Below are positions 25,735 to 48,478 of a DNA stretch of 64,000 nucleotides, piece after piece. Origin of the DNA: Oscillospiraceae bacterium (GTDB taxonomy: Bacteria; Bacillota; Clostridia; UBA1212; UBA1255); assembly GCA_015069185.1 (NCBI GenBank), contig SVJB01000007.1:4524-68523 (forward strand), in the 5' to 3' direction. Positions within the stretch are counted from its first letter, which is position 1, and each line of letters begins with the position of its first letter. Below the pieces are notes generated by a model that was not told the origin of the DNA, did not search any database, and saw only the letters and a list, made by a program, of their open reading frames with translations. Position numbers and translations under genes: made by a program.

Positions 25735-26658
25735 TTATTTTATATATTTTCTCCTGGATTCACATAATTTGGTAATAAATTGCTTGTCCAGCTCTGACAA
25801 TTTATATCCTTCCCGGTATATCAGCACATCTTTGTATATTTTCTTATTATCAATACATTTCCTCTGTACAAGGCCATATCGGTCCAGAATTTTCTCCGAA
25901 GCCGGGGATACCCACATAAATGTCTCCGGATTCTCTGACAGTAAATCAAACTGACTTGCCCTCTCGAAAACGAAAATACGGCGCTCAATATTATCTGGCA
26001 ACTCGTCCTTAACAATCTTTGCCAGCGGCAGTGACGGTACATAAGGGTCTGCATGAGCAATCTCTATGTATGGAGTCAGATCCTCAAATGAAATCTCTTC
26101 CATTGCCGCCAACGGATTATCTTTGCTCATAATCAGAATATATGAAAACTCCGTAATCATCTCATACGCAAGGCCTTTTTCCTCCAACATAGCCTTGAAA
26201 TATTTATCATAATTCTCTGCGTATCGTATTATTCCCAGTTTGTAGTCATTATCAAGCACATGGTTTATCGTTCTTTGAGAATTCGTTTCCTTATAAATTA
26301 TTTCTGCCGGATCTTCACTAATACACTTTGAGAACTCTGCAAAAGCATTTGATATGTAGCAAGCCCTGGGTACTGAAATAGAAAACTTTTGTTTCTTGGG
26401 CGTTCCTCGCTTATACAGCATCTCCACTTCGTCTATTTGCTTAAGTATACTCTGTGCATAACTGATGAATTCCTCTCCCTCAGGTGTCAACACCATACCT
26501 TTGGCACTTCTGGTGAAAATAGTAATGCCAAGATCTGCTTCCAGCTCCTTGATAGATCGGCTTATATTCGGTTGTGCGATAACTAAAGTCTCTGCTGCCT
26601 TGTTGAGCGATCCAAGTCTGGCAACCTCAACAGCGTATTTCATATGCAGTATATTCAT
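25735..26658 (-). CDS. LysR-family transcriptional regulator
   Basis: N-terminal wHTH MKYAVEVARLGSLNKAAETLVIAQPNISRSIKELEADLGITIF followed by a ~200-aa effector domain. Confidence 0.8.
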   Translation of the reverse strand: MNILHMKYAVEVARLGSLNKAAETLVIAQPNISRSIKELEADLGITIFTRSAKGMVLTPEGEEFISYAQSILKQIDEVEMLYKRGTPKKQKFSISVPRACYISNAFAEFSKCISEDPAEIIYKETNSQRTINHVLDNDYKLGIIRYAENYDKYFKAMLEEKGLAYEMITEFSYILIMSKDNPLAAMEEISFEDLTPYIEIAHADPYVPSLPLAKIVKDELPDNIERRIFVFERASQFDLLSENPETFMWVSPASEKILDRYGLVQRKCIDNKKIYKDVLIYREGYKLSELDKQFITKLCESRRKYIK

Positions 26659-26752: not shown

Positions 26753-26781
26753 TTGCAACATCACTCCCATAATGCTATAAT
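26753..26781 (+). promoter_or_regulatory. SigA-type promoter of the Dlt-like operon
   Basis: TTGCAA (26753-26758), 17 nt spacer, TATAAT (26776-26781), 47 nt upstream of ATG 26829. Confidence 0.55.
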
Positions 26782-26828
26782 AAAAGGTGGCGTTTTGCGC
26801 CCAAAAATTATCGGAGCGATTTTAACAA

Positions 26829-29006
26829 ATGACAAAGAAAGATGATATAAATTACAAAAAACACAGCAGCAAAAGCAGCGTGAAAAAAGATACGCCAAAG
26901 AAGAAAAAGAAAGGCGAGAAATATCTCCACCTCTTCATTATTTTAGTATTGGCTGTGGTTGCCGCGCTGGTAATAATTAATGAATACAATTACAGAGGCG
27001 TAGAGAAGTCTGTGCGTCTGGAGCTGGGTGATGCTGTTCCGGAAGCCGGCATTTTCGCAAAGAATGATAAAGATAAATCAAATATTCAATATGTAACCGA
27101 TGTTTCTTCCCTTGTTTTCACCGAAGAAGGTACATATCCTGTTACAATTAAGATAGGCAAGAGAGAGCTGGAGGTCAAGTTCAAGGTTCGTGATACCTTG
27201 GCGCCTACAGCTGATGTAAGAGACATGACTATCGGTACTAAAGCTAAGATTACTCCTGACCAGTTGGTTGAGAATATTCAGGACGCAGGGCTGGTATCTG
27301 TTTCATGGAAGAAAGCACCGGATTTCGGCGTGATAGGCGATTATAAAATCACACTCACACTCAAGGATATGTCCGGAAACAAAACAAGGTTATATACTAC
27401 TCTCAAGATACGTGATGTGTACGACGAGCTTACGATAGAGGCAAACACAGAGGGAAATGTTCCTGATGCCAAAGATTTCTTTCTGAAAGATATCCGGGAG
27501 GCAGATTATATTGGCGATTTATCAAATGTAGATACTCATCTGCCGGGCATATATCCTATAAAACTTAAAGCAGATGGAGCCAACTATTCATCAAAGATCA
27601 AAGTCATCGACACCACCGCACCTGTTGTTACAGTTGCGCGCAAAGTCCTGCTTAAAGGATCAACTCCTGACGCTATGAGTTTTGTTGAATCTTATGATGA
27701 AATAACAGGATCTGTAACAGCAGCATTTGACATTGCTCCGGATACATCTAAAATCGGCGAAGGCACCGGCAAGATTATTGTATCAGATTCCTCCGGCAAT
27801 AAAACAGAAGCTACAATTTCATACATCGTTGCAGAGTTTGAGTCTGTATCCATAGAAGCCGATGAGCTACCTATTAAGCCTGAAAGCATCATTAAGAACT
27901 ATGAGCTATATAGCGATGTTACGTTGACAAGCGGAGATTTATCTCCTGAAACACTTGGTACAACAGAGCTTATTTTCACAGTTGACGGGGCAGAATTAAC
28001 TGTGTACGTGACTGTGGTAGATACCAAGGTGCCTCAGGCAGAGCCAAACCATGTAAAAAGCTTCGCTTGTTATCCGTTGGAGGCTGATTTATTTGTAAAA
28101 AACATCGTTGACGGCTCTTCAGTTACATGCACCTTCCAGGTGAAGCCTGACTGGACCAAGGTAGGCACACAAGATGTTGTGATTCTCCTTACAGACAGCG
28201 CCGGCAACAAGGCCACTGTTAATTCTAAAATCACCATGGAAAAAGATACACAGCCCCCTGTGATTACAGGTCTTATGGAAAGATTTACATACCTGAATGA
28301 AGCTGTTAGTTATCTTAAAGAGATTCGCGCCACAGACAATTTTGATAAGAACGTGTCAATTACCGTAGATTCAGAAGTAAATATACGTCAAACAGGTTCG
28401 TATAAGGTAACATTTATTGCGACAGACATGGCTGGTAATACTACACGGGCATCTACAACTTTTACAGTTATAGAAGCAACAATTACAGACGAAGAGATTA
28501 AGGAACTGGCCGATAAGGTTCTCTACGGAGACGCTACTACCCCCGGCATTATAAACGACAGCATGACAACAGCCGAGAAAGCCCGCGCTATTTTTGATTG
28601 GTGCTACAAGAAAATCACATACGTAGGTGATACTAACCATTCAGACTGGCGCCTTGCCGCAAAGAAAGGTTTTGAGAAGAAGAGCGGAGATTGCTATACA
28701 TTCTATGCTGTATCTCGTGCGCTGCTGGAACAGCTTGACAACGTGGAGCTGCTTGAGATCAGACGTTACAACGCAAGCACCAACCACTACTGGTTGCTTG
28801 TTAATATCATGGGTACAGGCTGGTATCACTTTGATACATGTAATTTAGGTCCGTGGATTGATACTGTAAACCAAACAGGTCCCAGATATCTGTGCTTTAT
28901 GGAAATTGATTCTAATTTGACAAAATATTCCAAGAGATACTGGAGATACAAGGCTGACTTGTATCCCCCGGTTGCGACTACCGAATTTGTGGATCCGGAG
29001 AAATAA
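26829..29006 (+). CDS. Membrane-anchored protein with at least 4 Ig-like repeats and a C-terminal transglutaminase-like Cys-protease core
   Basis: N-terminal TM helix. Repeats end in D.SGNKT/DMAGNTT motifs. C-terminal core has GDCYTF (Cys), HYWLLV (His) and WYHFDT (Asp). Confidence 0.65.
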   Translation: MTKKDDINYKKHSSKSSVKKDTPKKKKKGEKYLHLFIILVLAVVAALVIINEYNYRGVEKSVRLELGDAVPEAGIFAKNDKDKSNIQYVTDVSSLVFTEEGTYPVTIKIGKRELEVKFKVRDTLAPTADVRDMTIGTKAKITPDQLVENIQDAGLVSVSWKKAPDFGVIGDYKITLTLKDMSGNKTRLYTTLKIRDVYDELTIEANTEGNVPDAKDFFLKDIREADYIGDLSNVDTHLPGIYPIKLKADGANYSSKIKVIDTTAPVVTVARKVLLKGSTPDAMSFVESYDEITGSVTAAFDIAPDTSKIGEGTGKIIVSDSSGNKTEATISYIVAEFESVSIEADELPIKPESIIKNYELYSDVTLTSGDLSPETLGTTELIFTVDGAELTVYVTVVDTKVPQAEPNHVKSFACYPLEADLFVKNIVDGSSVTCTFQVKPDWTKVGTQDVVILLTDSAGNKATVNSKITMEKDTQPPVITGLMERFTYLNEAVSYLKEIRATDNFDKNVSITVDSEVNIRQTGSYKVTFIATDMAGNTTRASTTFTVIEATITDEEIKELADKVLYGDATTPGIINDSMTTAEKARAIFDWCYKKITYVGDTNHSDWRLAAKKGFEKKSGDCYTFYAVSRALLEQLDNVELLEIRRYNASTNHYWLLVNIMGTGWYHFDTCNLGPWIDTVNQTGPRYLCFMEIDSNLTKYSKRYWRYKADLYPPVATTEFVDPEK

Positions 29007-29018
29007 GAGGTAAATATC

Positions 29019-30521
29019 ATGATTAATGTTTTAGAATATCTTGAAAACAGTGCTGCAAAGTATCCGGATAAGGTTGCCTTCACAGGCACTGATACAAGTG
29101 TGACTTTTGGTCAGATGCTTGTAAACAGCCGTATTATTGGTAGCCGGTTGATAGAAGCAGGAGCAAACAAAGAGCCTGTCGTTATCCTTATGCACCGCTC
29201 ACCTGAGATGATAGTATCATTCTTCGGCGTTATCGCTGCCGGCTGTTACTATGTGCCAATCGACGAACAAATGCCGGCACACCGCACTGAGCTTATTATG
29301 GACCAGCTTCACGCCCGTTATGTAATTACAGACGACGTTAACAACCCTGCCATACCGGAAGACGCTACTGTATTATGCTATAATGACATTGTGTCAAACA
29401 CGGGTGAAAATGCGATTTGCCTTGATGCCCTTGCCACAAGGCGGGCCCACGCTATCGATAAAGATCCTATTTATATAGTGTTTACTTCCGGCTCCACAGG
29501 CGTACCCAAGGGAGTTGTCACTAACCATCGCTGCGTCATTGATTACGTAGAGCAGCTCACAAAGATAATCGGAGCCGGACATGACTCTGTTTTTGGCATG
29601 CAGTCGCCTCTTTATGTAGACGCTTGTCTTAAAGAAATATATTCAACACTGAAGTTTGGCGCCACCACACATATTGTACCCACAGTGCTTTTCACACAGC
29701 CTGTAAAGCTTGTAGAGTTTCTTAACGAGCATCAGGTAAATACTGTTTGTTGGGTCGTGCCGGCGCTTACATTTATTTCCGGACTCAAAACTTTTAAGAC
29801 AATTGTGCCTGAATATTTGAAGACAGTTGCGTTTGGCAGTGAAGTTTTCCCGCCTAAGCAGCTTAAAGTGTGGCGCGAGACTTTGCCTGAGGCACGATTT
29901 ATTAATCTATATGGCCCTACAGAGGCAACCGGTATGTGTTGCCATTACGAGGTAACAGATAAAACGGATCCGGAGAGGCCCGTACCTATTGGCAAGCCAT
30001 TCCCTAATAAGGAAATTTTTCTGCTTAACGATGATGGCAAGCAAGTACCGGACGGAGAGGTTGGCGAGATTTGCATACGTGGTATCTCTCTGGCTCCCGG
30101 GTACTTTAACAATCCTGAGGTTACAAACAAGGCCTTCGTACAGAATCCTCTTAACACACTCTATCCGGACATAATCTATAAAACAGGAGACTTGGGACGA
30201 TACAACCAAGACGGAGATCTGGAATTCGTTTCACGAAAAGATTTTCAGATAAAGCATATGGGCTACCGTATTGAGCTTGGCGAGATTGAGATGCTTACAT
30301 GCAAAGTAGAGGGCGTAGAGAATGTATGTTGCCTGTATGATAGTGAAAAAAAGAAAATTTCCATGTTCTACATGGGAACAATAGATAAAGGACAGTTGGT
30401 GTCATTACTTAAAGAAAAATTACCTCGATACATGATACCAAATACTGTAATTCAATTGGAGTTAATGCCACTTACTGCGGGTGGCAAAACAGACAGAAAC
30501 GCCTTAAAGCAAATGCTGTAA
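29019..30521 (+). CDS. DltA-like stand-alone adenylation enzyme (amino acid--carrier protein ligase)
   Basis: ANL core motifs FTSGSTGVPKGV, YGPTE, YKTGDLGRY and GGKTDRNAL. 500 aa. Confidence 0.8.
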   Translation: MINVLEYLENSAAKYPDKVAFTGTDTSVTFGQMLVNSRIIGSRLIEAGANKEPVVILMHRSPEMIVSFFGVIAAGCYYVPIDEQMPAHRTELIMDQLHARYVITDDVNNPAIPEDATVLCYNDIVSNTGENAICLDALATRRAHAIDKDPIYIVFTSGSTGVPKGVVTNHRCVIDYVEQLTKIIGAGHDSVFGMQSPLYVDACLKEIYSTLKFGATTHIVPTVLFTQPVKLVEFLNEHQVNTVCWVVPALTFISGLKTFKTIVPEYLKTVAFGSEVFPPKQLKVWRETLPEARFINLYGPTEATGMCCHYEVTDKTDPERPVPIGKPFPNKEIFLLNDDGKQVPDGEVGEICIRGISLAPGYFNNPEVTNKAFVQNPLNTLYPDIIYKTGDLGRYNQDGDLEFVSRKDFQIKHMGYRIELGEIEMLTCKVEGVENVCCLYDSEKKKISMFYMGTIDKGQLVSLLKEKLPRYMIPNTVIQLELMPLTAGGKTDRNALKQML

Positions 30522-30544
30522 TTTTATATAAAGGACGGTTATTT

Positions 30545-30778
30545 ATGGACGATTTGATGAATATTCTTCAGGAACTTCATCCGGATGTAGATTTTGACAC
30601 AGAAACAAGTCTCATCGACGATAAGATTCTTGACTCATTTGATATTGTTACTCTGATTGCTGAGATTTCAGATACTTATGATGTTGCCATTCCGGCGCAG
30701 GACATTGTACCTGAGAACTTTAACTCAGCACAGGCGTTATATGCATTAATACAAAGACTTGAAGAAGAGGACGATTAA
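30545..30778 (+). CDS. DltC-like carrier protein
   Basis: 77 aa. Phosphopantetheine-site context DDKILDSFDIVTLI. The stop overlaps the next start (TAATG). Confidence 0.75.
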   Translation: MDDLMNILQELHPDVDFDTETSLIDDKILDSFDIVTLIAEISDTYDVAIPAQDIVPENFNSAQALYALIQRLEEEDD

Positions 30779-32342
30779 TGTTTTTTACATCTCTTAACTT
30801 TTTGGTATTTTTAGGTATTCTCATACCACTGTATTTTCTTGTACCAAAGAAGATACAGTGGATTGTGTTGCTTATTGCAAATGCAGTTTTTTATGTGTTT
30901 GCAGGTACCTCAGGTCTTATTTTCATATCAATAACAATCGTAACTACCTATATCGCCACGATGATTATCGACCATCTATATGGTGTGCAGGAAAATTATC
31001 TTAAAGAAAACAAGGCCCTATTAAGTAAAGAAGATAAAAAATCTTATAAAAATAAAATGATGGTACGCCGTAGGATTGTAGCAGTTTCCTGCGCAGTTAT
31101 CAGCTTTGGCATTATTGCTGTTATGAAGTACTCAGGCCTTTTTCTCAGAGGAACTGAATTTGCAAAGTCACTATCATTGATACTGCCTCTTGGTATTTCA
31201 TATTACACATTCCAGACAATGGGCTACCTGATCGATGTATACAGAGGAACATATAAGCCGGAGAAAAATATTTTTAAGCTTGCTCTGTTCACTTCATTTT
31301 TCCCATTACTATTGCAAGGACCGATTACCAGATTCGGAGACATCGGAAAGAGCCTATATGAGCCGCACTCATTTGACATGCACAATTTTGTGTATGGCTT
31401 AGAGCGTATTTTATGGGGATATTTTAAGAAAGTAGTAATTGCTGACCGCATTTTAATCGCGGTAAAAACAATTATTGGCGCACCTGATACATATGACGGC
31501 GCTTATGTGCTATGCGGTATGGTGTTTTACGCTATACAGCTATACTGCGACTTTACAGGTGGTATTGACATAACAATCGGAATCGCCCAGATTTTGGGAA
31601 TTAAGCTGCCTGAAAACTTTATCAGACCTTTCTTCTCAAAGAATATTGCAGAATACTGGCGCAGATGGCATATTTCTTTGGGAGTATGGTTCAGAGAATA
31701 TTTATTCTATCCTATTTCCGTATCAAAGCCTCTGCTTAAGCTGTCAAAATTCACACGTAATAAATCGGAAACGGCATAGGCATGAGAATTCCGGTGTATG
31801 TTGCCACTATCGCTGTATGGTTTATAACAGGTTTGTGGCACGGAAGCGCATGGAACTTTATTGTATGGGGACTACTTAATGCTCTGATAATTATTGTATC
31901 CGAAGAGTTATCTCCTTTATACGCCAAATTCCACGGTCATTTCCCTGGACTAAAGCATAAATGGGGATACAGATTGTTTGAGATCGGACGAATGTTCTTT
32001 ATAATGTGTTCTCTTCGTGTGCTGGACTGCTATAGAAGTGTAGGCACATCATTTAAAATGTACTCTACCCTTTTCACCAAGTTTAATTATAATATTCTCT
32101 TTGACGGATCTCTCCTCAAGCTGGGGCTTAACCTGTATGACTATATCGTTATCTTTGTCGGTGTTGTTTTACTTGTTGTCTTCAGCCTGGTACAGCGCAA
32201 AGGCAGTGTCAGAGATATGATAGCCCGCAAGCCGATAGGCGTACAAATGGCAATATTTGCCACGCTCTTATTTGCCATACTTATCTTTGGTGCGTACGGC
32301 ATTGGATTTGACGCGTCACAATTTATATACACACAATTCTGA
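30778..32342 (+). pseudogene. MBOAT-family (DltB/AlgI-like) O-acyltransferase split by a 1-nt frameshift (or assembly indel)
   Basis: ORF 30778-31779 (333 aa, ...RWHISLGVWFREYLFYPIS...) and ORF 31782-32342 (186 aa, ...ITGLWHGSAWNF with the catalytic His) are the N- and C-halves of one MBOAT. One extra A at aataaa (31759-31764) would give a continuous ...TRNKIGNGIGMRIPVYV... Confidence 0.7.
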
Positions 32343-32362
32343 CACTAAGGAGGTAAACATTT

Positions 32363-33460
32363 GTGAAAAAGCACAGCAAATTAAAAATAATATTAAGTTT
32401 AACAATTACAACATGTTTGTTCCTTGTTGTCTGCTATCTGGCACAATGTGTTTTAATGCCTAAATATATAGGAATACGCAAAGAGGGTGCTCTGATTGGC
32501 GAATACTATGATGAGGTAAAGAATCACGATGTAATAATTATCGGCGACTGTGAAGTTTATGAAAACATTTCACCCATTACATTATGGGAAGAATACGGTA
32601 TCACCTCGTATATACGAGGAAGTTCCCAGATGCTGGTATGGCATTCTTACTATATTCTGGAAGAAACGCTTAAATACGAAAAGCCTGATGTGGTTATTTT
32701 CAACGTGCTTGCCATGAAGTACAACGAACCACAGAGCGAAGCGTATAACAGAATGTGTTTAGACGGCATGAAAATGTCTTCTTCCAAAATTAACGCCATT
32801 AAGGCTTCTATGACAGAGGAAGAAAATATGATTTCATATTTCGTGCCGCTGCTTCGTTTCCACTCCCGTTGGAACGAGCTGACGCGTGATGATTTTAAAT
32901 ATATGTTTGACATTCCCAAAGTATCTCACAATGGCTATTTGATGCGCTGTGATGTGAAGCCATTGGATACTTTACCTAATATGGGATACCCGAAAAATGA
33001 TGATTTCGGGGCAACAGCTTATGAATATCTTGATAAAATCACAGCTTTGTGCAAGGAAAACGACATAGAATTACTGCTGATTAAATCCCCTAGTGTTTTT
33101 CCTCATTGGTACGACGAATGGGATCAACAAATGATTGACTATGCCAAAGAAAATGGGTTACAATATGTGAACACAATTAAGCTGCAAGAGACTATCGGCA
33201 TTGACATGAAAACAGATACTTACGATGCCGGTCAGCACCTTAATCTCTATGGCGCCGAGAAATTCTCAAAGTGGCTTGGTCAGTATTTGCAAGACACCTA
33301 CAACGTAGCAGACCATTCCGATGATGCAAAGATCAGTAAGATATACGAAGAAAAGGTCAAGGCATATTATGAGGAAAAGGCCCAGCAAGAGGCAGAGATT
33401 GCAGAGTTTGGCTACCTGAAAATTTACGAGGAATTTTTGAAGGAGAATAAAGATGAATAA
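32363..33460 (+). CDS. SGNH/DltD-like membrane-anchored protein (block I reads GDC instead of GDS)
   Basis: GTG start with AAGGAGG 9 nt upstream. N-terminal TM helix. HDVIIIGDCEVYEN, with GDC at 32543-32551. C-terminal ...DAGQHLN... block. Confidence 0.5.
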   Translation: MKKHSKLKIILSLTITTCLFLVVCYLAQCVLMPKYIGIRKEGALIGEYYDEVKNHDVIIIGDCEVYENISPITLWEEYGITSYIRGSSQMLVWHSYYILEETLKYEKPDVVIFNVLAMKYNEPQSEAYNRMCLDGMKMSSSKINAIKASMTEEENMISYFVPLLRFHSRWNELTRDDFKYMFDIPKVSHNGYLMRCDVKPLDTLPNMGYPKNDDFGATAYEYLDKITALCKENDIELLLIKSPSVFPHWYDEWDQQMIDYAKENGLQYVNTIKLQETIGIDMKTDTYDAGQHLNLYGAEKFSKWLGQYLQDTYNVADHSDDAKISKIYEEKVKAYYEEKAQQEAEIAEFGYLKIYEEFLKENKDE

Positions 33461-33983
33461 ATCATTGAATAAAATTTTATTGATAGGACTACTTGTTGTT
33501 GCCCTTTGCGGTATTTTGTTGTTAAGCAGTTGCGGAGATGACAACGGTGTCATAATTGATCCTAACGCCACACAGAACCCCGACAGTTCTTCTCTTAAAT
33601 TTAAATCCGGAGACCTTGAGATTTATATTTATCAGGAAATTGCTCAAGTAAAGGCTACTCTTGGCGAGCCTGTCAGCTATTATGAGAGCGCCAGCTGTGG
33701 GTACACCGGCATGGATATGTTCTATCAGTATAAAGGTTTTGAGTTGACAGTAAATACTATTGACGGCAAAGATGTTGTTACTGCCATCTTTATTGCTGAC
33801 GATACCGTTACAATACCGGAAGGTTTGAAAATCGGAGACAGTGAAGATAAAATCCAGTCCTTACTCGGTAGCAGCTACGAAAAAGACGGCAGAGCATATA
33901 ACTTCAAGGCCGGAAGTACATTATTACAGATTTTAGTAAAAGACGGAGCGGTTATATCAATTGAATACAAGCCTGCAAACTAA
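33453..33983 (+). CDS. Small lipoprotein, unknown function
   Basis: Signal peptide plus lipobox LLLSSC. 176 aa. 8-nt overlap with the upstream gene. Confidence 0.55.
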   Translation: MNKSLNKILLIGLLVVALCGILLLSSCGDDNGVIIDPNATQNPDSSSLKFKSGDLEIYIYQEIAQVKATLGEPVSYYESASCGYTGMDMFYQYKGFELTVNTIDGKDVVTAIFIADDTVTIPEGLKIGDSEDKIQSLLGSSYEKDGRAYNFKAGSTLLQILVKDGAVISIEYKPAN

Positions 33984-34719
33984 CAACAAGAAAGTCCTTG
34001 GTATTATCGGCGGTATGGGGCCTTTGTCTACCGCTGAACTTTTCCATACCATTGTCAGCTTTACAGAAGCCCGGCAGGATGCTGACCACATTCACATCCT
34101 TATTGATAACGATCCTTCGGTGCCGGATCGCACCCGGGCCATTCTCGGTAGTAGCATGGAGCCAGCTACTCATATCGCACAAAACATACATAAACTAGCA
34201 GCGCAAGGGGCCCAGGTCTTTATAATATGTTGTAATACATCTCACTTTTTTTATGACAGTATTGTAGCATCTACCGGTGAAAATATAATTAGTATGCCGG
34301 AGGTTACTGCCCACCATGCAGCAAGTAAGGGGTACAAGCATGTATGTGTGCTGGCAACAGACGGCACAGTACGCAGCGGTGTATACGAAAGAGCGTTGGC
34401 GCAGGTAGGGATAGAGACAGTTTCTCTATCAGACGAAAATCAAAAGCAGATAATGGATATAATTTATAACGACATTAAGGCCGGCAGAGAAACATCGGAA
34501 AATGACTTTTGCCGCCTACTATCAAATATAAAAAGCAATAACAATGTAGACGGTTTCTTACTGGGGTGCACAGAATTGTCTGTTGCAGTAAAGAATATGT
34601 CGTCTTCTGTAAAAGATTTATTTAGGTTTATAGATCCTCTTATTATCAGTGCTGCAGAATGCGTCACAGCATGTGGTGGGCAGCTGACAGACGAGGCACG
34701 AAACATACTGAAAGAGTGA
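33961..34719 (+). CDS. Aspartate/glutamate-type (PLP-independent, two-Cys) amino-acid racemase
   Basis: GIIGGMGPLST, first catalytic Cys in CCNTSHFF, second in LGCTELS. TTG start at 33961 is required to include the conserved N-terminus. Confidence 0.75.
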   Translation: MNTSLQTNNKKVLGIIGGMGPLSTAELFHTIVSFTEARQDADHIHILIDNDPSVPDRTRAILGSSMEPATHIAQNIHKLAAQGAQVFIICCNTSHFFYDSIVASTGENIISMPEVTAHHAASKGYKHVCVLATDGTVRSGVYERALAQVGIETVSLSDENQKQIMDIIYNDIKAGRETSENDFCRLLSNIKSNNNVDGFLLGCTELSVAVKNMSSSVKDLFRFIDPLIISAAECVTACGGQLTDEARNILKE

Positions 34720-34724
34720 TGTAA

Positions 34725-36698
34725 ATGATTGGTATTCTTTTCTTATTGGTTTACTTATGTATCGGTTTATTTCTTGCGAATATTTTCATGCAAGATTCCA
34801 GACCGTTTACCAGAGTCTGGGCCGGAGCTACCACTGGTCTTATTTTGCTGATGTGCTCCCATGTACCCTTTTCTTTTTTAATGGGGTTTAATATTGGCTC
34901 TCATTTATTAGGACTGATTCTTTCCGGAGTGCTTGTGTTCATATCATGGTATGCAAAGAGTCGTACATTAACACGAGCCGGTAATCTAAACAGAAAAACA
35001 GGTTTAGAGCTTCTCTTAGGCAAGTGGCGTGTCCCGGCACTTAAAGGTGAATATATTTGCTTGGCGTTTATACTTCCTCTCACCCTTTATATTGGCATCT
35101 GCCTATATAATCACACATTAAACGAAGTGGAGCCCGGTGTTTATTATACGGGACAATGCACTTATGGAGACATGAATTTTCACCTTGGTATTATTACCTC
35201 AATTGCAGAGCAAGGTACTTTCCCACCGGATTACAGTATTTTTCCAGGTCAGCAACTTGACTATTACTTCTTCTGCGACTCTATCTCATCATCGCTGTAT
35301 ATTTTTGGAACATCCCTTCGCACCGCGTATATCTTGCCAATGTTGGTAGCATCATTCCTTGTATTTACAGGGTTCTGGCAGCTGGCTTTCTTGGTTTTAA
35401 AGCGTGCATCAAAAGCAGCTATTGCCTGGGTATTGTTTTTCTTCAACGGCGGATTTGGTCTTTTCTATTTCCTTGATGGGCTTGGCGGCGATGACAAGTC
35501 AAACTTTACAAGAATTTTCACAGAATTCTATCAGACGCCAACAAACTACAGGGACGGCAATGTTTCCGGCACAGCTAATATCCAATGGACCAATACAGTT
35601 GTAGATATGATGATTCCTCAAAGGGCCACCCTCTTTGGCTGGATGGCAGTATTTCTCGTCCTTTTCTTGCTGTATAAAGCAGTATTTCTGGAGGAAAAGA
35701 CGCTTTTCCTCCCTGCCGGTGTACTGGCAGGGTGCCTACCAATGATACAGACATACGCATACTTCACCGTAGGTATCACTGCAGTTTGCTGGATTATTTA
35801 TTCCGTTGTACGTACAAAATTCAACAAAGCAACGATTATCTCATGGTTAAAATTTGGTTTGCCGGCGCTTGTGTTATCTGTGCCGCAGCTGGCAATATGG
35901 ATATTTGGAGCTACAGACGGCGAAGGATTTATACGTTTTGATTTTAATGCATATAACGAAACAGATAATTGGCTCTGGTTCTGGGTAAAAAATGTAGGCA
36001 TAGTGTTCATCCTGTTGGTGCCCGCTATTATACACGCGCCAAAGAAGCTTAAACTATTTTACTCTGCAGGCCTGGCCATATTTATTCTTACTGAATTTAT
36101 TGTTTTCCAGACTTTGGTTTATGATAATAATAAGCTTTATCTCATGTGGTATGCCTTCTCAGTAATTATCGTAGCTAATTTTATGGTAGAGTGTTACGAT
36201 AAGCTTCGTGAGTTACGTGCCGCGAGAGTATTTATTGCAGTGTTTGTTATGATTATTGCCACCGCTTCTGCTTTCTTTACAATGGGCCGCGAGATTTACT
36301 CCGGCTTTGATAAGAATGCATATGTCCTATATGATGGTTCTCAGGTGGCTGCATCTGAATATATACTTGAAAACACAGAGCCTGATTCGTTATTCTTGTC
36401 AAATTACGATCATAATAACGCAATTTCCTCCTTAACAGGTCGTAATATTTTCGTTGGTGCCGGCACTTTCCTGTACTCACACGACGTAGATTACGGAGAG
36501 AGACAGCAAATTGTCCGCAAATGTTTCACAAATCAAGAAGCTTTTGAACAATATAAGGCACAATATGGCTTTGATTATGTATATGTCTCACAATCAGAGA
36601 GAAATACTTTCTCCGGTATTATTATAGAGTACTTCAAAGCAAACTACCCTTGCGTATACGACAGCAATAATGTAATGATCTTTGATGTACGCAACTAA
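34725..36698 (+). CDS. Large polytopic membrane protein (GT-C-like candidate), unknown function
   Basis: 657 aa with more than 12 predicted TM helices, an extracytoplasmic loop (YTGQCTYGDMNFHLGIITSIAEQGTFPPDYSIFPG) and a soluble C-terminal ~100 aa. No catalytic motif that I can name. Confidence 0.4.
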   Translation: MIGILFLLVYLCIGLFLANIFMQDSRPFTRVWAGATTGLILLMCSHVPFSFLMGFNIGSHLLGLILSGVLVFISWYAKSRTLTRAGNLNRKTGLELLLGKWRVPALKGEYICLAFILPLTLYIGICLYNHTLNEVEPGVYYTGQCTYGDMNFHLGIITSIAEQGTFPPDYSIFPGQQLDYYFFCDSISSSLYIFGTSLRTAYILPMLVASFLVFTGFWQLAFLVLKRASKAAIAWVLFFFNGGFGLFYFLDGLGGDDKSNFTRIFTEFYQTPTNYRDGNVSGTANIQWTNTVVDMMIPQRATLFGWMAVFLVLFLLYKAVFLEEKTLFLPAGVLAGCLPMIQTYAYFTVGITAVCWIIYSVVRTKFNKATIISWLKFGLPALVLSVPQLAIWIFGATDGEGFIRFDFNAYNETDNWLWFWVKNVGIVFILLVPAIIHAPKKLKLFYSAGLAIFILTEFIVFQTLVYDNNKLYLMWYAFSVIIVANFMVECYDKLRELRAARVFIAVFVMIIATASAFFTMGREIYSGFDKNAYVLYDGSQVAASEYILENTEPDSLFLSNYDHNNAISSLTGRNIFVGAGTFLYSHDVDYGERQQIVRKCFTNQEAFEQYKAQYGFDYVYVSQSERNTFSGIIIEYFKANYPCVYDSNNVMIFDVRN

Positions 36699-37518: not shown

Positions 37519-38592
37519 TTATTTGAATCTATAAAGAGAATTCGCATAGAAGGTTTTATCTCCGCAAATAAAGGAACCGTCTGCTTCTAGTGTTTGCCAT
37601 ACATTCATAGTATCATCCGTAGTGTTATTATATACATGAATGTCGGTTGCCGGATTACCTCCACCTGCAACGATAAATGCTTTTTGTCCTGTAGTAGGAT
37701 TTACAGCAACATCAACAACCATCAGCGCAGCACCTGTGCCGGCTGTCGAACAGAATACATCTCCTATTTTCAAATCGCCGGTTGATACACTCTTCATTTG
37801 CAATCTCAAAGAAGCAACATTGCTATAAGTCATAACATTCTGCAAATAATATCTGAAAGAACCAGGAGAATCACCCAACTCTACATCTTTATGTCCACAA
37901 GTCGCACCATTCTCACCGTGATCTGTACACCATGATAATTTGTTTTCAGAAATAAGCGTTTTATTTAATCTGCCGCCATCAATCCAAGTCTGATATTCAC
38001 ACATGAACGCCGGTGTGGTACATAACTCAAATGCAATTGCTGCAATATCACCTTTGCCACGTAAATATTCTGAACGAAGTCTGATAATTGATCCTGCAGC
38101 ACCCTGAAGATTTCCTGTATTAATAAGCTCTATATTAAATACACCTGCAATAGACGCTCCGGGGGCTTCTATCATAGCTTTTGTTTCTGTATCATGCATC
38201 AGCGGTCTTGTTCCATATGCTTTGAGTCCAAAATTCCTTAAATATTCCTCAAAGCTTCCTTCCTCAACAGCAACTCTCTCAAAACCCTCTGGCGCAGTAA
38301 ATCTGGTGCTCACTGTGTTGTTCTGTACAAGTACCTCGTCCGGTCGTTTTGTCGGTGCCGGAGTTGGCGTCACTCTTTCCGTTGGAGGAACAAGCTCCGT
38401 AGCACTGGGGGCCGGCGTGTTTGTAGCAGACATCGTAGGCTGCTTTATAACATTGTCATCATCCTTAGTAAGAGCTGCTTTAAAATCATCAAAGAAAATA
38501 ATAACAAATACTAAAGATGCAATAATCAAACATAATGAAATAACTATAAGAATAAAGCCGGTATTACTTTTCTTACTATAATTATCCTTCAT
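37519..38592 (-). CDS. DUF4846-like secreted/anchored protein
   Basis: N-terminal TM helix, Pro/Thr linker, then ...NLQGAAGSIIRLRSEYL..., which resembles the DUF4846 signature as I recall it. ATG 38592 has AGGAGG 8 nt upstream. Confidence 0.5.
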   Translation of the reverse strand: MKDNYSKKSNTGFILIVISLCLIIASLVFVIIFFDDFKAALTKDDDNVIKQPTMSATNTPAPSATELVPPTERVTPTPAPTKRPDEVLVQNNTVSTRFTAPEGFERVAVEEGSFEEYLRNFGLKAYGTRPLMHDTETKAMIEAPGASIAGVFNIELINTGNLQGAAGSIIRLRSEYLRGKGDIAAIAFELCTTPAFMCEYQTWIDGGRLNKTLISENKLSWCTDHGENGATCGHKDVELGDSPGSFRYYLQNVMTYSNVASLRLQMKSVSTGDLKIGDVFCSTAGTGAALMVVDVAVNPTTGQKAFIVAGGGNPATDIHVYNNTTDDTMNVWQTLEADGSFICGDKTFYANSLYRFK

Positions 38593-39688
38593 TATACTCT
38601 CCTCCTTCGTCATCTTCTATATTTTCATCCTCAGCCAACACCTCATCAATGTCCTCTCCGTATATATCTTCGAGGCTATCGCTAGGTGGAGTCCAATCCG
38701 GAATGATACCATCATCGGCGTCTGCCACATTCTCACCGGCATTGTCCTCGCTTGGTGCTGCTTCCCCTGCCGGTCTTGATTTATCTGCCTTATAGTTGTC
38801 TATCATGTACTTCTTAAGAGCAGGATACGTATAGAAAGTATTTACAAAACTCATGAATCCCATACCAATAATTAAGTATACAAACAGAGTTACTATGATT
38901 GAAAATATGCCGTCAATAAAGATAAGCGGTACTGCAATAGCTACTATATTGAATATCAGCATACCAAGATTTGGTAACCACCTGATAAAAGCAAGGAGCA
39001 TAGCGTTCTTATAAAGCTGTTTGAGTGTCAACTTAAATGTTACAATCATAGGATAAATGTACATCATCATTATGAGGAACAGCACCGTAAGACAAATAAG
39101 GATGAGCGTAGAGAAGAACTGCATCCAGCCCGGAAAATATTGTTCCAAAGGAGCCCCAGGAGTAGTAATAGCCAATACGAATGACATATCAATCATTATG
39201 AGGAAACCTAAGAATCCATTTATCAAAGAGGCTTTTATTGCCAGGTTTGCGTTGCTGCGAGTCTTTGTCATGAAGTCATACCAAATGAAACATGGTTCTC
39301 TCTTCACAAAAGATTTTATTATATACATAAATCCGGCTTTGCACGGTCCCATAGCATATACAGGAATTATGGTGAAAAATAAAGTAACAAATATAAGCCC
39401 CATGGTATATAGCTGAGCGGCCTCAGGACTTGAAGATATAATCTCCCCTACTGTTTTCTCCGATGTAGATGTCAGCGTGAAATACATTGATACAGCCAAC
39501 ACATAGCTAAAGGCAGCAAGTGCCATAGGTATCAGATTGGCAACAAAATACATCAGGTTAACTGCCATCATTTTGTACTTTTTCAACCAGAATATTTCCC
39601 AGAATCTGAAGAACGCTCTCTTCTCAGGTGCGCCCTTTTCTATACCCTTTCCTTCATCTAAATAAAGGAGCTTTCTAAATAACTTCAC
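38582..39688 (-). CDS. YesL/DUF624-family membrane protein with acidic C-terminal tail
   Basis: FFRFWEIFWLKKYKMMAVNLMYFVANLIP N-terminus, 6 TM helices, and a D/E-rich tail. Confidence 0.6.
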   Translation of the reverse strand: MKLFRKLLYLDEGKGIEKGAPEKRAFFRFWEIFWLKKYKMMAVNLMYFVANLIPMALAAFSYVLAVSMYFTLTSTSEKTVGEIISSSPEAAQLYTMGLIFVTLFFTIIPVYAMGPCKAGFMYIIKSFVKREPCFIWYDFMTKTRSNANLAIKASLINGFLGFLIMIDMSFVLAITTPGAPLEQYFPGWMQFFSTLILICLTVLFLIMMMYIYPMIVTFKLTLKQLYKNAMLLAFIRWLPNLGMLIFNIVAIAVPLIFIDGIFSIIVTLFVYLIIGMGFMSFVNTFYTYPALKKYMIDNYKADKSRPAGEAAPSEDNAGENVADADDGIIPDWTPPSDSLEDIYGEDIDEVLAEDENIEDDEGGEYNEG

Positions 39689-45957: not shown

Positions 45958-47229
45958 CTATTTTTCATAAATAGTAGGTACATCATTAACATATCTCCAA
46001 TAACCCCATTTAATTCCTTTTCTTGCTTCTATCTCAATTATTTCTGCTTCTGTCTCGGCATATAAATATACAGTTATTGGTTTGTTACATATATCATATA
46101 AGCTGTTATATAATTCCTCTGCGTCTTTATCCCCTTTATAGATAATATGTGCGAATCGATTACACTTATCAAATGCACTGAAATTTATCGAAATGGGCTC
46201 CGATATCATAATTGACGAAATTGCAGTATTACAAAATGCCTGCTTTTCAATTCTTGTTACACCTTTAGACAGATCTACTGTTTTGAGTTGTATACAATCC
46301 TCGAACGCACCTTCACCAATAGTTTTTAAACTTTCCGGCAATGTCACAGATTTAAGATATATGCACTCTTTAAATGCATATTTATCTATACTCTCTACAC
46401 CATTGGGAATAACAAGGTCTGTGATGTTATCATTTTCTTTAAACGCATTTACTCCAATATGCTTAATTCCCGTAGGAATTTTTGTGGCATTAACCGCCAG
46501 AACCAATGTGTCTTCTTTTATCAAGCAATTATCTTTAACTGAATATTTTTTATTCTCAAAGTCAACAGTTATTGTTTCTAATGTATCCAAAGGCAAAGCA
46601 TCAATAGCCACACTTGTCACAGAAGCAGGAATATGTATTGTTTTTATTTTGCATCCTTCAAAGCAAGACGAACCTAAAGTTACCAGAGAATCATTCAGTG
46701 TAATATTTTCTAAAGAGGAACATCCTGCAAAAGCACTTGACTTCAGTTTTATAATATTTTTACCAAGAGTAACTTTTTTTAGCGAGCTGCAATTCTCAAA
46801 AGCTGTTATTCCAATCTCTTCTACGCTATCCCCAATTACTACTTCTTCTAAGTTAGAGCATCCTCTAAATGCACTGGAATCAATTATTTCAACATCCCCT
46901 TCAATAACAACTTTCTTTATTTGTGTATTATCCGCAAAAGCGCAGAAATCAATCGATATAACCTTTTTTCCGTCGCGAGTTCTCGGAATAACAAGCACTT
47001 CATCCTTACAGGTTCCGATTCCCGATATTGAAACATAATTGCCATCTTTTCTGAATTCTAATCCTGTACTCTGACGTAGCGGAGCTTCGGTAGGCGCCAC
47101 GGTAGGAGCCAGTGTCGCTGTCGGGGCTATCGTCGGAGAAGCAGTATCTGCGGTATTGTCACATGCTATAGTCACACACAGAATCATTATGATTATCAGT
47201 CCACATAAAAATCCTTTTATAATTCTCAT
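45958..47229 (-). CDS. BspA-type leucine-rich-repeat surface (lipo)protein, paralog B
   Basis: Signal peptide ending VTIAC, PT-rich linker, and ~22-aa repeats of the I.IP.SVT.IG..AF..C..L..V type (IGITAFENCSSLKKVTL...). Confidence 0.75.
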   Translation of the reverse strand: MRIIKGFLCGLIIIMILCVTIACDNTADTASPTIAPTATLAPTVAPTEAPLRQSTGLEFRKDGNYVSISGIGTCKDEVLVIPRTRDGKKVISIDFCAFADNTQIKKVVIEGDVEIIDSSAFRGCSNLEEVVIGDSVEEIGITAFENCSSLKKVTLGKNIIKLKSSAFAGCSSLENITLNDSLVTLGSSCFEGCKIKTIHIPASVTSVAIDALPLDTLETITVDFENKKYSVKDNCLIKEDTLVLAVNATKIPTGIKHIGVNAFKENDNITDLVIPNGVESIDKYAFKECIYLKSVTLPESLKTIGEGAFEDCIQLKTVDLSKGVTRIEKQAFCNTAISSIMISEPISINFSAFDKCNRFAHIIYKGDKDAEELYNSLYDICNKPITVYLYAETEAEIIEIEARKGIKWGYWRYVNDVPTIYEK

Positions 47230-47251
47230 TTATTGCTCACTCCTTTCGTCG

Positions 47252-48478
47252 TCACCCTATGTTATCATAAATGATAGGTTTTCCATCAATATATCGCCAG
47301 AAGAACAACTCTGAATACTCAGATGTATCGGTTTGTCTTATTTCTTCTTCTGAGTCTGCATATACGCACAAATATAAGTCGCGTGTACTGATTTCGCTGG
47401 TCAGTGATACATAATTCCACTCAGACATCTTACCTTCATAATAAACATGCGTTAAATTATGGCACTCATAAAATGCTTGTTTCTGTAAAGATGTAGCTTT
47501 TGGTACTATAATATTTGTTAAATTGTCACATGCTGTAAACGCCCATGTTTCAATTAAGGCAAGGCTTTGTGGCAGTGAAATATTTTTTAGATTTTCACAG
47601 CCGCCAAACGAAAATTTCCCCAGAGATATAATTCCTTCCGGAATGATAAAATCTTCTAAGTTTGTATTCTGGTAAAAAGCACCATCTCCTATGATTACAG
47701 TACCTTCCGGGAGATTACCGTTTTTGTTGCTGAGCATGAGGGTATCACCTAACATCAAGCAATTGTCCTTAACTTGATATAATCTGTTTGCAGGATCAAT
47801 TGTTATTTGCTCTAAAGCATTTGTACAAATTGTTGATTCTGCCAGTAATTTAAAAGAAGCCGGAAAATATATGCTCTTAATATTACAACTTGCAAAACAT
47901 CCGGCTAATAATTTTTCTACTGATTTGCCTAAAACCACATTCTCTAAAGAAGTACATCCCATAAACGCAGCTTCTTCTATAACAGTTACTCTATCCGGAA
48001 TCTTAATTTCTTTTAAACCGGTACAAAAGCTGAAAGCTTCTCTTTCAATTGTGGTTAAGTTCTCACTAAATATGATTTCTTCTAATCCGCTACAATTTTT
48101 AAACGCCGTTTGCTCAATAACTTTTATACTATGCTGCATTATTACTTTTTTGATGTCTTGATTCCCGTCAAAAGCAGAGGATGCTATTCCTGTAACAGGA
48201 GCGCCATTGTATTCAACAGGAATAATAACGGTGGTATCTGTACATGTGCCAATGGCCGAAACATAATAACCATCCGTATGTTGCTTTGTAAACTTGAGAC
48301 CTTCACTGGCTACAAGCGGGGTTGCTGTAGGAGCAATCGTTGGTGTTAAAATTGTAGTGGCTGTGGGCTCTGTCTCAGGAGGTGAAGTAGGCTTACCAGC
48401 GGAATCTTTATCACAAGATGTAATAAGTAGTGTTAATAAAAATAGTAAACAAAATACAAATGGTTTTGCTCTCTTCAT
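47252..48478 (-). CDS. BspA-type leucine-rich-repeat lipoprotein, paralog A
   Basis: Lipobox LLITSC and a PT linker. Same LRR architecture as 45958-47229, collinear with it. Confidence 0.75.
   Translation of the reverse strand: MKRAKPFVFCLLFLLTLLITSCDKDSAGKPTSPPETEPTATTILTPTIAPTATPLVASEGLKFTKQHTDGYYVSAIGTCTDTTVIIPVEYNGAPVTGIASSAFDGNQDIKKVIMQHSIKVIEQTAFKNCSGLEEIIFSENLTTIEREAFSFCTGLKEIKIPDRVTVIEEAAFMGCTSLENVVLGKSVEKLLAGCFASCNIKSIYFPASFKLLAESTICTNALEQITIDPANRLYQVKDNCLMLGDTLMLSNKNGNLPEGTVIIGDGAFYQNTNLEDFIIPEGIISLGKFSFGGCENLKNISLPQSLALIETWAFTACDNLTNIIVPKATSLQKQAFYECHNLTHVYYEGKMSEWNYVSLTSEISTRDLYLCVYADSEEEIRQTDTSEYSELFFWRYIDGKPIIYDNIG

Follow-up and report, generated by a model that had tools for sequence, protein, structure and literature searches.

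What does an operon built on the lines of dlt load, and onto what, when it encodes an amino-acid racemase of its own? The question is raised by an array of eight plus-strand genes at 26829-36698 of the window, by which we mean the whole stretch of DNA analysed: 64,000 nucleotides (nt) of contig SVJB01000007.1 (GenBank assembly GCA_015069185.1, positions 4,524 to 68,523 of the forward strand) from an Oscillospiraceae bacterium. A first-pass annotation, made from the letters and their open reading frames (ORFs), had called the array Dlt-like and had supposed that an Asp/Glu-type racemase inside it provides a residue other than D-alanine (D-Ala), possibly an acidic D-amino acid. Profile models, fold models and the comparison of related loci point to a system of carrier-dependent transmembrane aminoacyl transfer, which probably places an acidic D-amino acid, most likely D-aspartate (D-Asp), onto the envelope by way of cysteine enzymes; we hold this reading with moderate confidence. 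The genes of the array are, in order (aa, amino acids; NRPS, non-ribosomal peptide synthetase):

26829-29006, plus strand: transglutaminase-core protein with immunoglobulin (Ig)-like repeats, 725 aa
29019-30521, plus strand: stand-alone adenylation enzyme of NRPS type, 500 aa
30545-30778, plus strand: carrier protein, 77 aa
30778-31779 and 31782-32342, plus strand: MBOAT protein in two ORFs of 333 aa and 186 aa; 521 aa if intact
32363-33460, plus strand: SGNH protein, 365 aa
33453-33983, plus strand: lipoprotein, 176 aa
33961-34719, plus strand: two-cysteine racemase, 252 aa
34725-36698, plus strand: GT-C-fold membrane protein, 657 aa

By the ORF list, neighboring genes overlap or are separated by 23 nt or less (in gene order 12 nt, 23 nt, a 1-nt overlap, 20 nt, an 8-nt overlap, a 23-nt overlap and 5 nt), so that the positions and spacings first described stand; what had been overlooked is that the MBOAT gene is split by a frameshift. 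The family assignments hold throughout, by profile models and, for the SGNH and GT-C proteins, by fold models.

The donor side: adenylation enzyme, carrier and racemase

Related loci were collected by looking up the window's adenylation enzyme together with three of its homologues (11 loci), and by one scan of a genome collection (80 loci), and were analysed by ORF calling and phmmer; the loci added later, L092-L097, were read from gene tables instead. Among about 90 related loci, seven of the genes form a conserved system: those for the transglutaminase-core protein, the adenylation enzyme, the carrier, the MBOAT, the SGNH protein, the lipoprotein and, in about two thirds, the racemase. More than 30 different genomes have this set of genes, which puts the arrangement far beyond chance, and the order adenylation-carrier-MBOAT-SGNH is conserved in roughly 60 loci. 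Co-occurrence across Clostridia, which the first-pass annotation had left to be checked, is thus seen for the seven genes, with the racemase in its two thirds, and does not extend to the GT-C gene.

None of the proteins with a Dlt counterpart passes as one. The adenylation enzyme, an AMP-binding protein, clears TIGR01733 with 346 bits (cut-off 317.4) and fails both DltA equivalogs (277.7 and 281.9 bits; the cut-offs are 559.85 for TIGR01734 and 476 for NF003417); in the PDB it is about equally close to NRPS adenylation domains (LgrA) and to DltA. The carrier matches PP-binding with 24.1 bits (cut-off 20.8), bears its phosphopantetheine site at Ser31 (30635-30637) within a DS motif conserved in 68 homologues, and fails both DltC equivalogs (NF003464, 31.7 bits, cut-off 68; TIGR01688, 19.9 bits, cut-off 52.35). 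Since the adenylation enzyme scores best with NRPS adenylation domains (LgrA; TIGR01733), enzyme and carrier might be taken for parts of a small-molecule NRPS-like pathway, with the membrane proteins as unrelated neighbors; however, the loci contain no condensation, thioesterase or reductase domain, and the conserved gene order and the C-terminal Tyr of the MBOAT, kept in nearly all loci, tell so strongly against such a pathway that we practically dismiss it.

The substrate pocket is of one kind throughout this group. The Stachelhaus code DAKWAGLG[MI]K is shared by the window enzyme and 120 database homologues (121 sequences) and is found in 31 loci; in the window it reads DAKWAGLGMK, with Asp201 at position 235, Lys205 at 239 and Lys490 at 517. 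The ligand of the α-amino group, Asp235, is kept, and is accompanied by Lys at 239, Trp at 278 and Gly at 330. The pocket was anchored on the core motifs A4 (FD), A5 (NxYGPTE) and A10 (GKxDR), and the register of positions 299 and 301 was fixed on the conserved Glu303 of 'GSE' through an alignment with PltF and a MAFFT alignment with DltA; another reading, DAKWVFLGMK, was dropped, as it places 299 and 301 one residue off against this Glu. Positions 235, 236, 239, 330, 331 and 517 are independent of the register. Basic residues in such pockets go, as a rule, with an anionic side chain, and Lys239 occurs in one published Glu code, DAKDLGVVDK; we take it as a lead to an acidic substrate, not as an assignment. 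The comparison with DltA that the first-pass annotation had called for brings out a difference, Lys239 beside Asp235: the pocket of Bacillus subtilis DltA, taken here to be DLMSMCTVAK (a reference to which we give less weight), has only Asp235 and Lys517 in common with DAKWAGLGMK.

The racemase belongs to the Asp/Glu family, as first annotated, and stands closest to genuine aspartate racemases: it matches PF01177 (Asp_Glu_race) with 124 bits and TIGR00035 with 189 bits (cut-off 93.1), and its best match in the PDB is the aspartate racemase of P. horikoshii (1JFL, 2e-41). Both cysteine motifs, with the catalytic Cys91 (34231-34233) and Cys203 (34567-34569), are conserved in 23 operon-linked homologues. 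The enzyme also keeps the Arg of PDRT and the Lys of IY..K, which bind the β-carboxylate in the P. horikoshii enzyme. Because of this kinship, these two residues and Lys239 in the pocket, D-Asp is the first choice of substrate and the most likely one; D-glutamate (D-Glu) is less likely, as the MurI model gives only 32 bits. D-Cysteate is a real alternative: the model of CuyB, an enzyme from the family of aspartate racemases (PMC11193023), is passed by the window racemase with 191.6 bits (cut-off 190) and by six of nine other operon-linked racemases, which score 168-221 bits.

The racemase is tied to the operon through the pocket. All 22 loci that have it belong to the DAK pocket class, and none of 45 others contains it (Fisher p = 9e-9). 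Within this class about 21 of some 31 informative loci possess it, in one of four positions: behind the transglutaminase-core gene, behind the lipoprotein gene (the window's arrangement), behind the lipoprotein and transglutaminase-core genes together, or between the carrier and adenylation genes. The suggestion that it is dedicated to the operon is borne out in so far as it is linked to this one class in four gene orders; it is not universal, however: of the complete loci that share the pocket code, about a third lack it, among them the closest relative, L094. The adenylation enzyme of L094 has 86% identity to that of the window, and its lipoprotein gene is followed, after 105 nt and without a racemase, by the GT-C gene. 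The racemase is therefore not needed in cis; in such loci either an unlinked racemase supplies the D-isomer, or the D-isomer is not obligatory and the L-isomer could serve.

The racemase-less loci, and the seven of ten operon-linked racemases that pass the cysteate-racemase cut-off, lend some weight to another account of the same machinery, by which the cargo is not the product of the racemase but an L-amino acid or some other acid, admitted through Lys239, and the racemase is a loosely linked enzyme of supply, salvage or detoxification, for example one for cysteate or one of broad specificity. We consider this unlikely, though not to be neglected: a racemase exclusive to the DAK class and yet placed in four operon positions would be difficult to account for if it had no functional tie to adenylation, and no catabolic partner such as CuyA lies nearby. 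That the loaded residue is an acidic D-amino acid and not D-Ala survives the tests run and gains support from the linkage to the pocket class. No Rfam family, riboswitches included, and no tRNA was found in the window, which thus offers no RNA clue to the ligand.

From the carrier to the envelope

Dlt systems and PatA-type systems differ in how the MBOAT holds the group it exports: DltB moves D-Ala from DltC to the Tyr of an FxYxxF motif in the microprotein DltX, whereas PatA-type MBOATs have this motif fused at the C-terminus on two extra helices, where its Tyr is auto-acylated, and work in pathways without a carrier protein (PMC12148441). The MBOAT of the operon matches its Pfam family, keeps both MBOAT His motifs (WHISL with His298 and LWHG with His355), and continues into two additional C-terminal transmembrane (TM) helices (aa 454-472 and 487-505) to end, as in PatA, in the acyl-shuttle motif FxYxxF, here FIYTQF (32322-32339). 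This ending is shared by most full-length MBOATs of the related loci, and the Tyr is kept in nearly all; no small ORF for a separate DltX fits the intergenic gaps of 23 nt or less. An adjoining extracytoplasmic SGNH partner, as in PatAB-type pairs, is encoded by the next gene, with an N-terminal TM anchor and the SGNH fold. The acyl-CoA donor of such pairs, which dispense with a carrier, is however replaced by the adenylation enzyme and carrier directly upstream, which are conserved in all related loci. Judged by its sequence, the MBOAT is of PatA/AlgI type with a fused shuttle, yet fed by an adenylation enzyme and a carrier; on the model TIGR04091 for DltB, a protein of about 400 aa that has no shuttle at its C-terminus, the intact protein reaches 150.3 bits (cut-off 375).

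The split of the MBOAT gene in the window comes from a deletion of 1 nt, AAA at 31762-31764 against AAAA in the metagenome contig L001, which represents the window organism and whose MBOAT is otherwise 100% identical over the gene and intact at 521 aa; the site is also read through in the metagenome contigs L002-L005. The frameshift would be an error of the assembly or else a natural knockout, at strain level, that disables the entire pathway, and, the gene being intact in L001, the description of the array as eight genes is right for the lineage of the organism.

The SGNH protein is held by an N-terminal TM anchor (aa 9-27) and has no Pfam match, no sequence match in the PDB and no match to DltD sequence models. 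Its block I reads GDCE, with Cys63 (32549-32551) in the position of the nucleophile, and block V provides Asp288 and His292. In an AlphaFold2 model built from a 44-sequence alignment (pLDDT 81), the top Foldseek matches are DltD structures (6pfx, 3bma, 7dxm), followed by GDSL lipases and TesA; the protein thus has the fold and the membrane anchor of DltD, but not its Ser nucleophile. Cys63 is invariant in the 44 homologues and in every DAK-class locus except L012, while sister systems have Ser in this column. Of 150 representatives from a search of the full library, the 29 closest all have Cys and the more distant ones Ser, so that Cys appears as a derived feature of one SGNH clade. Precomputed annotation gives the Cys-type proteins at L096:8001-9080 and L097:8001-9086 a weak match to PF27429 ('LB_356'), a recent Pfam entry.

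These features bear on another explanation, that the array is a divergent but ordinary Dlt operon for D-Ala on teichoic acids. In its gene logic the array follows Dlt, DltA, DltB and DltC are its closest named equivalogs in NCBIfam, and DltD is the top structural match; but the Dlt models all score far below cut-off, the DltA pocket as taken above shares only the two invariant positions, the shuttle is fused where Dlt has DltX, the SGNH nucleophile is Cys, and the linked racemase is of the Asp type and not Alr. We regard an ordinary Dlt operon as very improbable. That the operon is not canonical Dlt, as first stated, is confirmed by the models for DltA, DltB and DltC and by the lack of any match to DltD sequence models; the label 'Dlt-like', in turn, understates the difference, given a PatA/AlgI-type MBOAT with its own FxYxxF motif, no DltX, and Cys as the SGNH nucleophile.

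The two remaining extracytoplasmic proteins go with the Cys. The lipoprotein has the lipobox LSSC with Cys27 (33531-33533) and, in an alignment of 15 orthologues, the invariant residues Glu78, Ser81-Cys82 (33696-33698), Gly86, Tyr93 and Asp117; it has no relative in the PDB, and Pfam gave only a weak match below threshold. The transglutaminase-core protein starts with a Lys-rich tail and one TM helix (aa 32-50), continues through about four to five Ig-like repeats (Pfam Bact_surface_Ig-like) with four 'DTxxP' linkers, and ends in a Transglut_core domain (PF01841, aa 571-669; 28.8 bits, cut-off 23) with the triad Cys622 (28692-28694), His653 and Asp669, whose GDC, HxW and YHxD motifs are conserved in 41 homologues. 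Of 37 DAK-class loci, 31 contain its gene, which is never seen with a Ser-type SGNH protein; the lipoprotein gene likewise co-occurs only with the Cys type. All 35 loci with a Cys-type SGNH protein carry the transglutaminase-core gene, the lipoprotein gene or both (27 have both, and most of the other 8 run into a contig end), as against 0 of 25 loci with the Ser type. The transglutaminase/Ig gene, which the first-pass annotation had counted into the operon, is therefore confirmed as a member of the system by its conservation in related loci.

The transfer would then proceed in five steps. The racemase would produce a D-amino acid whose side chain is short and acidic, D-Asp being the most likely, as its family and its operon linkage suggest; the adenylation enzyme would load this amino acid as a thioester on the 77-aa carrier, Asp235 and Lys239 pointing to the substrate; the MBOAT would move the aminoacyl group to its own FIYTQF Tyr, at the outer face, by a chemistry analogous to that of PatA and DltB/DltX; the anchored SGNH protein would accept the group on Cys63, presumably as a thioester; and it would pass it on to an envelope acceptor, with the lipoprotein and the transglutaminase-core protein as obligatory partners. 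These two, the former with its invariant Ser-Cys pair, might hand the group on or attach it at a greater distance from the membrane, in the wall. The transglutaminase-core protein could act within the wall and not at the membrane, because its catalytic domain ends a variable stack of Ig repeats, and its role might be that of a relay or of an editing enzyme, for which FmtA offers a precedent.

The bond finally formed may also be an amide and not an ester, the thioester chain running from Cys63 to Cys82 of the lipoprotein and/or Cys622 of the transglutaminase-core protein and from there to an amine, for example on the side chain of a stem peptide of peptidoglycan or on a surface protein, with a D-Asp branch or cross-link outside the cell as the result. 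The change from Ser to Cys in the SGNH protein is strictly coupled to the presence of a transglutaminase-core enzyme and of a lipoprotein with an invariant Cys; transglutaminase-fold enzymes form thioester acyl-enzymes and transfer to amines; and nearly all bearers of the system are Clostridia from gut, rumen and digester samples, and as these are strict anaerobes, thiols exposed on them would remain in the reduced state. Transglutaminase-core domains are, however, often plain hydrolases, and the lipoprotein Cys could be structural; on balance, amide formation seems to us a rather doubtful outcome.

Several points weigh against the favored reading, an acidic D-amino acid transferred through cysteine enzymes. 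What the sequences show are domains, motifs, conserved residues and patterns of co-occurrence; the substrate, its stereochemistry, the carboxyl group that is activated, the intermediates, the acceptor and the type of bond are all inferred. On the donor side stand the racemase-less loci and the cysteate-racemase scores already given; in addition, the register at 299/301 is ambiguous by one residue, and we know of no specificity code that matches the pocket with its Trp278 and Gly330. On the acceptor side, the TM-scores of the SGNH matches in Foldseek are low relative to the query (0.33-0.37), although they rise to 0.7 relative to small SGNH targets; insertions and long helices account for the low values. 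Lastly, with its MBOAT frameshifted, the system may be inactive in the window genome.

Distribution, sister loci and surroundings

The system is common. Relatives of the adenylation enzyme that are 55-58% identical run into the thousands and belong to the Lachnospiraceae, Oscillospiraceae/Ruminococcaceae and Acetivibrionales; its matches amount to over 7,000 clusters at 90% identity, and an identical enzyme is annotated from a metagenome-assembled genome (MAG) of Ruminococcaceae; the SGNH protein, used as a marker, gives 6,602 matches in a library clustered at 50% identity, 417 representatives of them at E <= 1e-30. The bacteria that carry the system include Blautia, Mediterraneibacter, Hungatella and Herbinix (Lachnospiraceae), and their sources are gut, rumen and digesters. 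The complete set with racemase is present in two cultured species, Mobilitalea sibirica (L097) and Herbinix hemicellulosilytica (L096; protein identical to that of the isolate). Outside this range, L020 is a complete system, racemase included, on a contig binned as Candidatus Gastranaerophilales (Melainabacteria), and L041 a partial sister system in a MAG of Anaerolineaceae; both occurrences could reflect horizontal transfer or misbinning.

Sister loci have the same adenylation-carrier-MBOAT-SGNH skeleton with other pocket codes, and a tailoring gene of their own in the place of the racemase (PLP, pyridoxal phosphate):

DVKW[ML]SLCNK: LysA-like PLP decarboxylase
IARW.SQASK, a code without the α-amino-binding Asp235: LysA-like PLP decarboxylase
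DNLWLCLDAK: formyltransferase
DNLWLALVDK (L047): GNAT

In a fifth class, SM[ST]WLALDIK, no tailoring gene was identified. The tailoring genes lie as follows:

L044:11503-12684, L065:7083-8264, L083:11771-12970 and L058:11512-12714: PLP decarboxylase, flanked by the adenylation and carrier genes
L046:11544-12407, L047:11502-12308 and L084:12429-13976: formyltransferase, GNAT or GtrII-like glucosyltransferase, beside the adenylation enzyme (DNLW.. classes)

The nearest NCBIfam model of the decarboxylases is TIGR03099, for an exosortase-A-associated decarboxylase; their place suggests that in these systems the amino acid would be decarboxylated while tethered to the carrier, for example to β-alanine or γ-aminobutyrate, before export. 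Because the pocket classes carry different tailoring genes, the family appears to have radiated into many acyl and aminoacyl decorations.

Two hybrid loci cross the class borders: L058 (9956-17328) joins a DVK-class enzyme and decarboxylase to the set of transglutaminase-core protein, Cys-type SGNH protein and lipoprotein, and L012 (1777-7059) joins a racemase and a DAK-class enzyme to a Ser-type SGNH protein. These hybrids indicate that the systems consist of two exchangeable halves, a cytoplasmic donor and an extracytoplasmic acceptor. The donor modules would then be racemase plus DAK-class enzyme, PLP decarboxylase plus DVK-class enzyme, and others; the acceptor modules would be the Ser-type SGNH protein, or the Cys-type SGNH protein with lipoprotein and transglutaminase-core protein. 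Taken to its full extent, this would make of the Clostridia a group with a combinatorial two-module decoration, in which a racemase, decarboxylase, formyltransferase or GNAT, each with its matched adenylation enzyme and carrier, feeds exchangeable acceptor modules. In the acceptor module seen here, a chain would run from the MBOAT Tyr to the SGNH Cys and on to thioesters on the Cys of the lipoprotein and/or the transglutaminase-core protein; the ester chemistry of Dlt would thereby be converted to the formation of amides, and D-Asp would end as branches or cross-links on peptidoglycan or surface proteins outside the cell. In this complete form the idea is speculative, and we think it unlikely to hold.

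The last gene of the array stands apart from this system. Its 657-aa product has about 13 TM helices and a C-terminal soluble domain, and no Pfam match or sequence match in the PDB; in its AlphaFold2 model (pLDDT 88) the top 20 Foldseek matches are all of the GT-C fold (STT3, DPY19, PglB, AftA, ALG12 and ArnT among them; E-values to 1.6e-7). The model thus bears out the fold first proposed, but the inclusion of the protein in the system is not upheld: the gene adjoins the cluster only in L001, the window organism, and in L094, and is absent from the other related loci, while its more distant homologues sit in unrelated gene contexts. We therefore reject it as a component and regard it as a lineage-specific neighbor, which is probably co-transcribed with the operon here.

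Three convergent minus-strand genes follow the GT-C gene, a trio that is syntenic in L094:

36695-37471, minus strand: overlaps the stop codon of the GT-C gene by 4 nt; no family
37519-38613, minus strand: the DUF4846 gene of the L001 gene table
38582-39688, minus strand: weak MusI-like membrane match only

A second GT-C enzyme of 846 aa (PMT / PMT_2 / PMT_4TMC) is encoded at 8055-10595 of the window on the minus strand, followed at 10592-12775, also minus, by a gene for a 727-aa protein of no Pfam family; with this second enzyme, the organism has several envelope glycosyltransferases of the polyprenyl-phosphate-sugar type. The ORF at 49400-51394 (664 aa) was considered as a GT-C paralogue and rejected, being an ABC transporter.

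Upstream of the operon lie two features that may concern its expression:

26753-26781, plus strand: candidate sigma-70-like promoter, TTGCAA-17-TATAAT and an extended -10 (TG), in agreement with the consensus at 10 of 12 positions
25735-26658, minus strand: divergent LysR-family regulator (HTH_1 / LysR models)

The candidate lies 48 nt upstream of the first ATG, inside the 170-nt gap to the LysR gene. The site first pointed out is thus there, and is plausible as the operon promoter; its support comes from position alone, since promoter-like sites are not rarer in the region than expected by chance (53 observed, 39 expected). The LysR gene could regulate the operon or the neighboring Fe-ADH gene. 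The genes around the array are mostly minus-strand ones, and across it the GC skew is reversed.

Two further observations concern the window at large. The minus-strand gene at 58162-60849 encodes an 895-aa fusion of an AraC-type helix-turn-helix with two B12-binding domains and a URO-D domain (MtaA-like methyltransferase), an unusual regulator architecture, and two tandem BspA-type leucine-rich-repeat surface proteins, of 423 and 408 aa, are encoded at 45958-48478, also on the minus strand.

Relation to known transfer systems

D-Alanylation by Dlt is the textbook mechanism by which Gram-positive bacteria tune surface charge, antimicrobial-peptide resistance and interaction with the host; the operon points to a system parallel to it and widespread in abundant anaerobes. 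As its cargo is probably a zwitterionic or acidic D-amino acid and not a cationic one, it would act on surface charge differently from D-Ala. Its distinctive parts are the carrier-fed PatA-type MBOAT, the natural Cys variant of an SGNH enzyme and the obligatory partner of transglutaminase fold. It would give abundant gut commensals a reason to produce D-Asp (or D-cysteate), and as two species that carry the complete set are in culture, the idea is open to direct test. We found no published description of such a system in the literature searched, comparative-genomics papers included, in keeping with the earlier remark that no characterised pathway has this composition.

With Dlt, the system shares the stand-alone adenylation enzyme, the carrier, an MBOAT that would transfer to an FxYxxF Tyr, and a membrane-anchored SGNH partner. 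It differs in that the equivalog models for DltA, DltB and DltC fail and those for DltD do not match; in the pocket, which has Lys239 and lacks the DltA pocket residues, Cys at position 301 among them; in the shuttle, fused to the MBOAT here and on a separate DltX there; in the SGNH nucleophile, Cys as against the Ser of DltD; in the additional conserved genes for the transglutaminase-core protein and the lipoprotein; and in having an Asp-type racemase within the operon, whereas the Alr that serves Dlt is encoded elsewhere. PatA/PatB, AlgI/AlgJ/AlgX and WssH/WssI are alike in their long MBOAT with C-terminal FxYxxF and their extracytoplasmic SGNH partner (PMC12148441). They draw on acetyl-CoA, however, and have no adenylation enzyme or carrier, whereas the donor here would be an aminoacyl-carrier and the SGNH residue is Cys.

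Two other systems resemble the donor side. In Enterococcus faecium and Lactococcus lactis, a PLP-independent aspartate racemase is encoded next to Aslfm, the D-Asp enzyme of the cell wall, but Aslfm is a cytoplasmic ATP-grasp ligase that acts on UDP-MurNAc-pentapeptide, and there is no carrier, MBOAT or extracellular step. In AlmEFG, which adds glycine to the lipid A of Vibrio cholerae, a DltA-like enzyme and a DltC-like carrier have been repurposed for an amino acid other than D-Ala; transfer is by AlmG, a lipid A acyltransferase of the cytoplasmic face, and not by an MBOAT-SGNH pair, and there is no racemase.

For the transglutaminase-core protein as a further extracellular enzyme, a possible analogy is FmtA, a serine esterase that resembles penicillin-binding proteins. 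FmtA is a second extracellular enzyme, needed in Staphylococcus aureus for D-Ala to pass from lipoteichoic to wall teichoic acid (PMC12505958). The extra enzyme here differs in being a Cys-His-Asp protein of transglutaminase fold, mounted on Ig repeats. The sister loci with a LysA-like decarboxylase have their counterparts in BtrI/J/K and VinN/L/O, antibiotic pathways in which carrier-bound Glu or 3-methyl-Asp is decarboxylated; there the product is an antibiotic, whereas in the sister loci the carrier is followed by an MBOAT-SGNH exporter, and the operon of the window has the racemase in the decarboxylase's place. Taken together, these likenesses place the system, as far as its sequences allow, among the MBOAT-SGNH systems of transmembrane acylation, with what appears to be the logic of Dlt inside the cell and that of PatA/PatB in the membrane.

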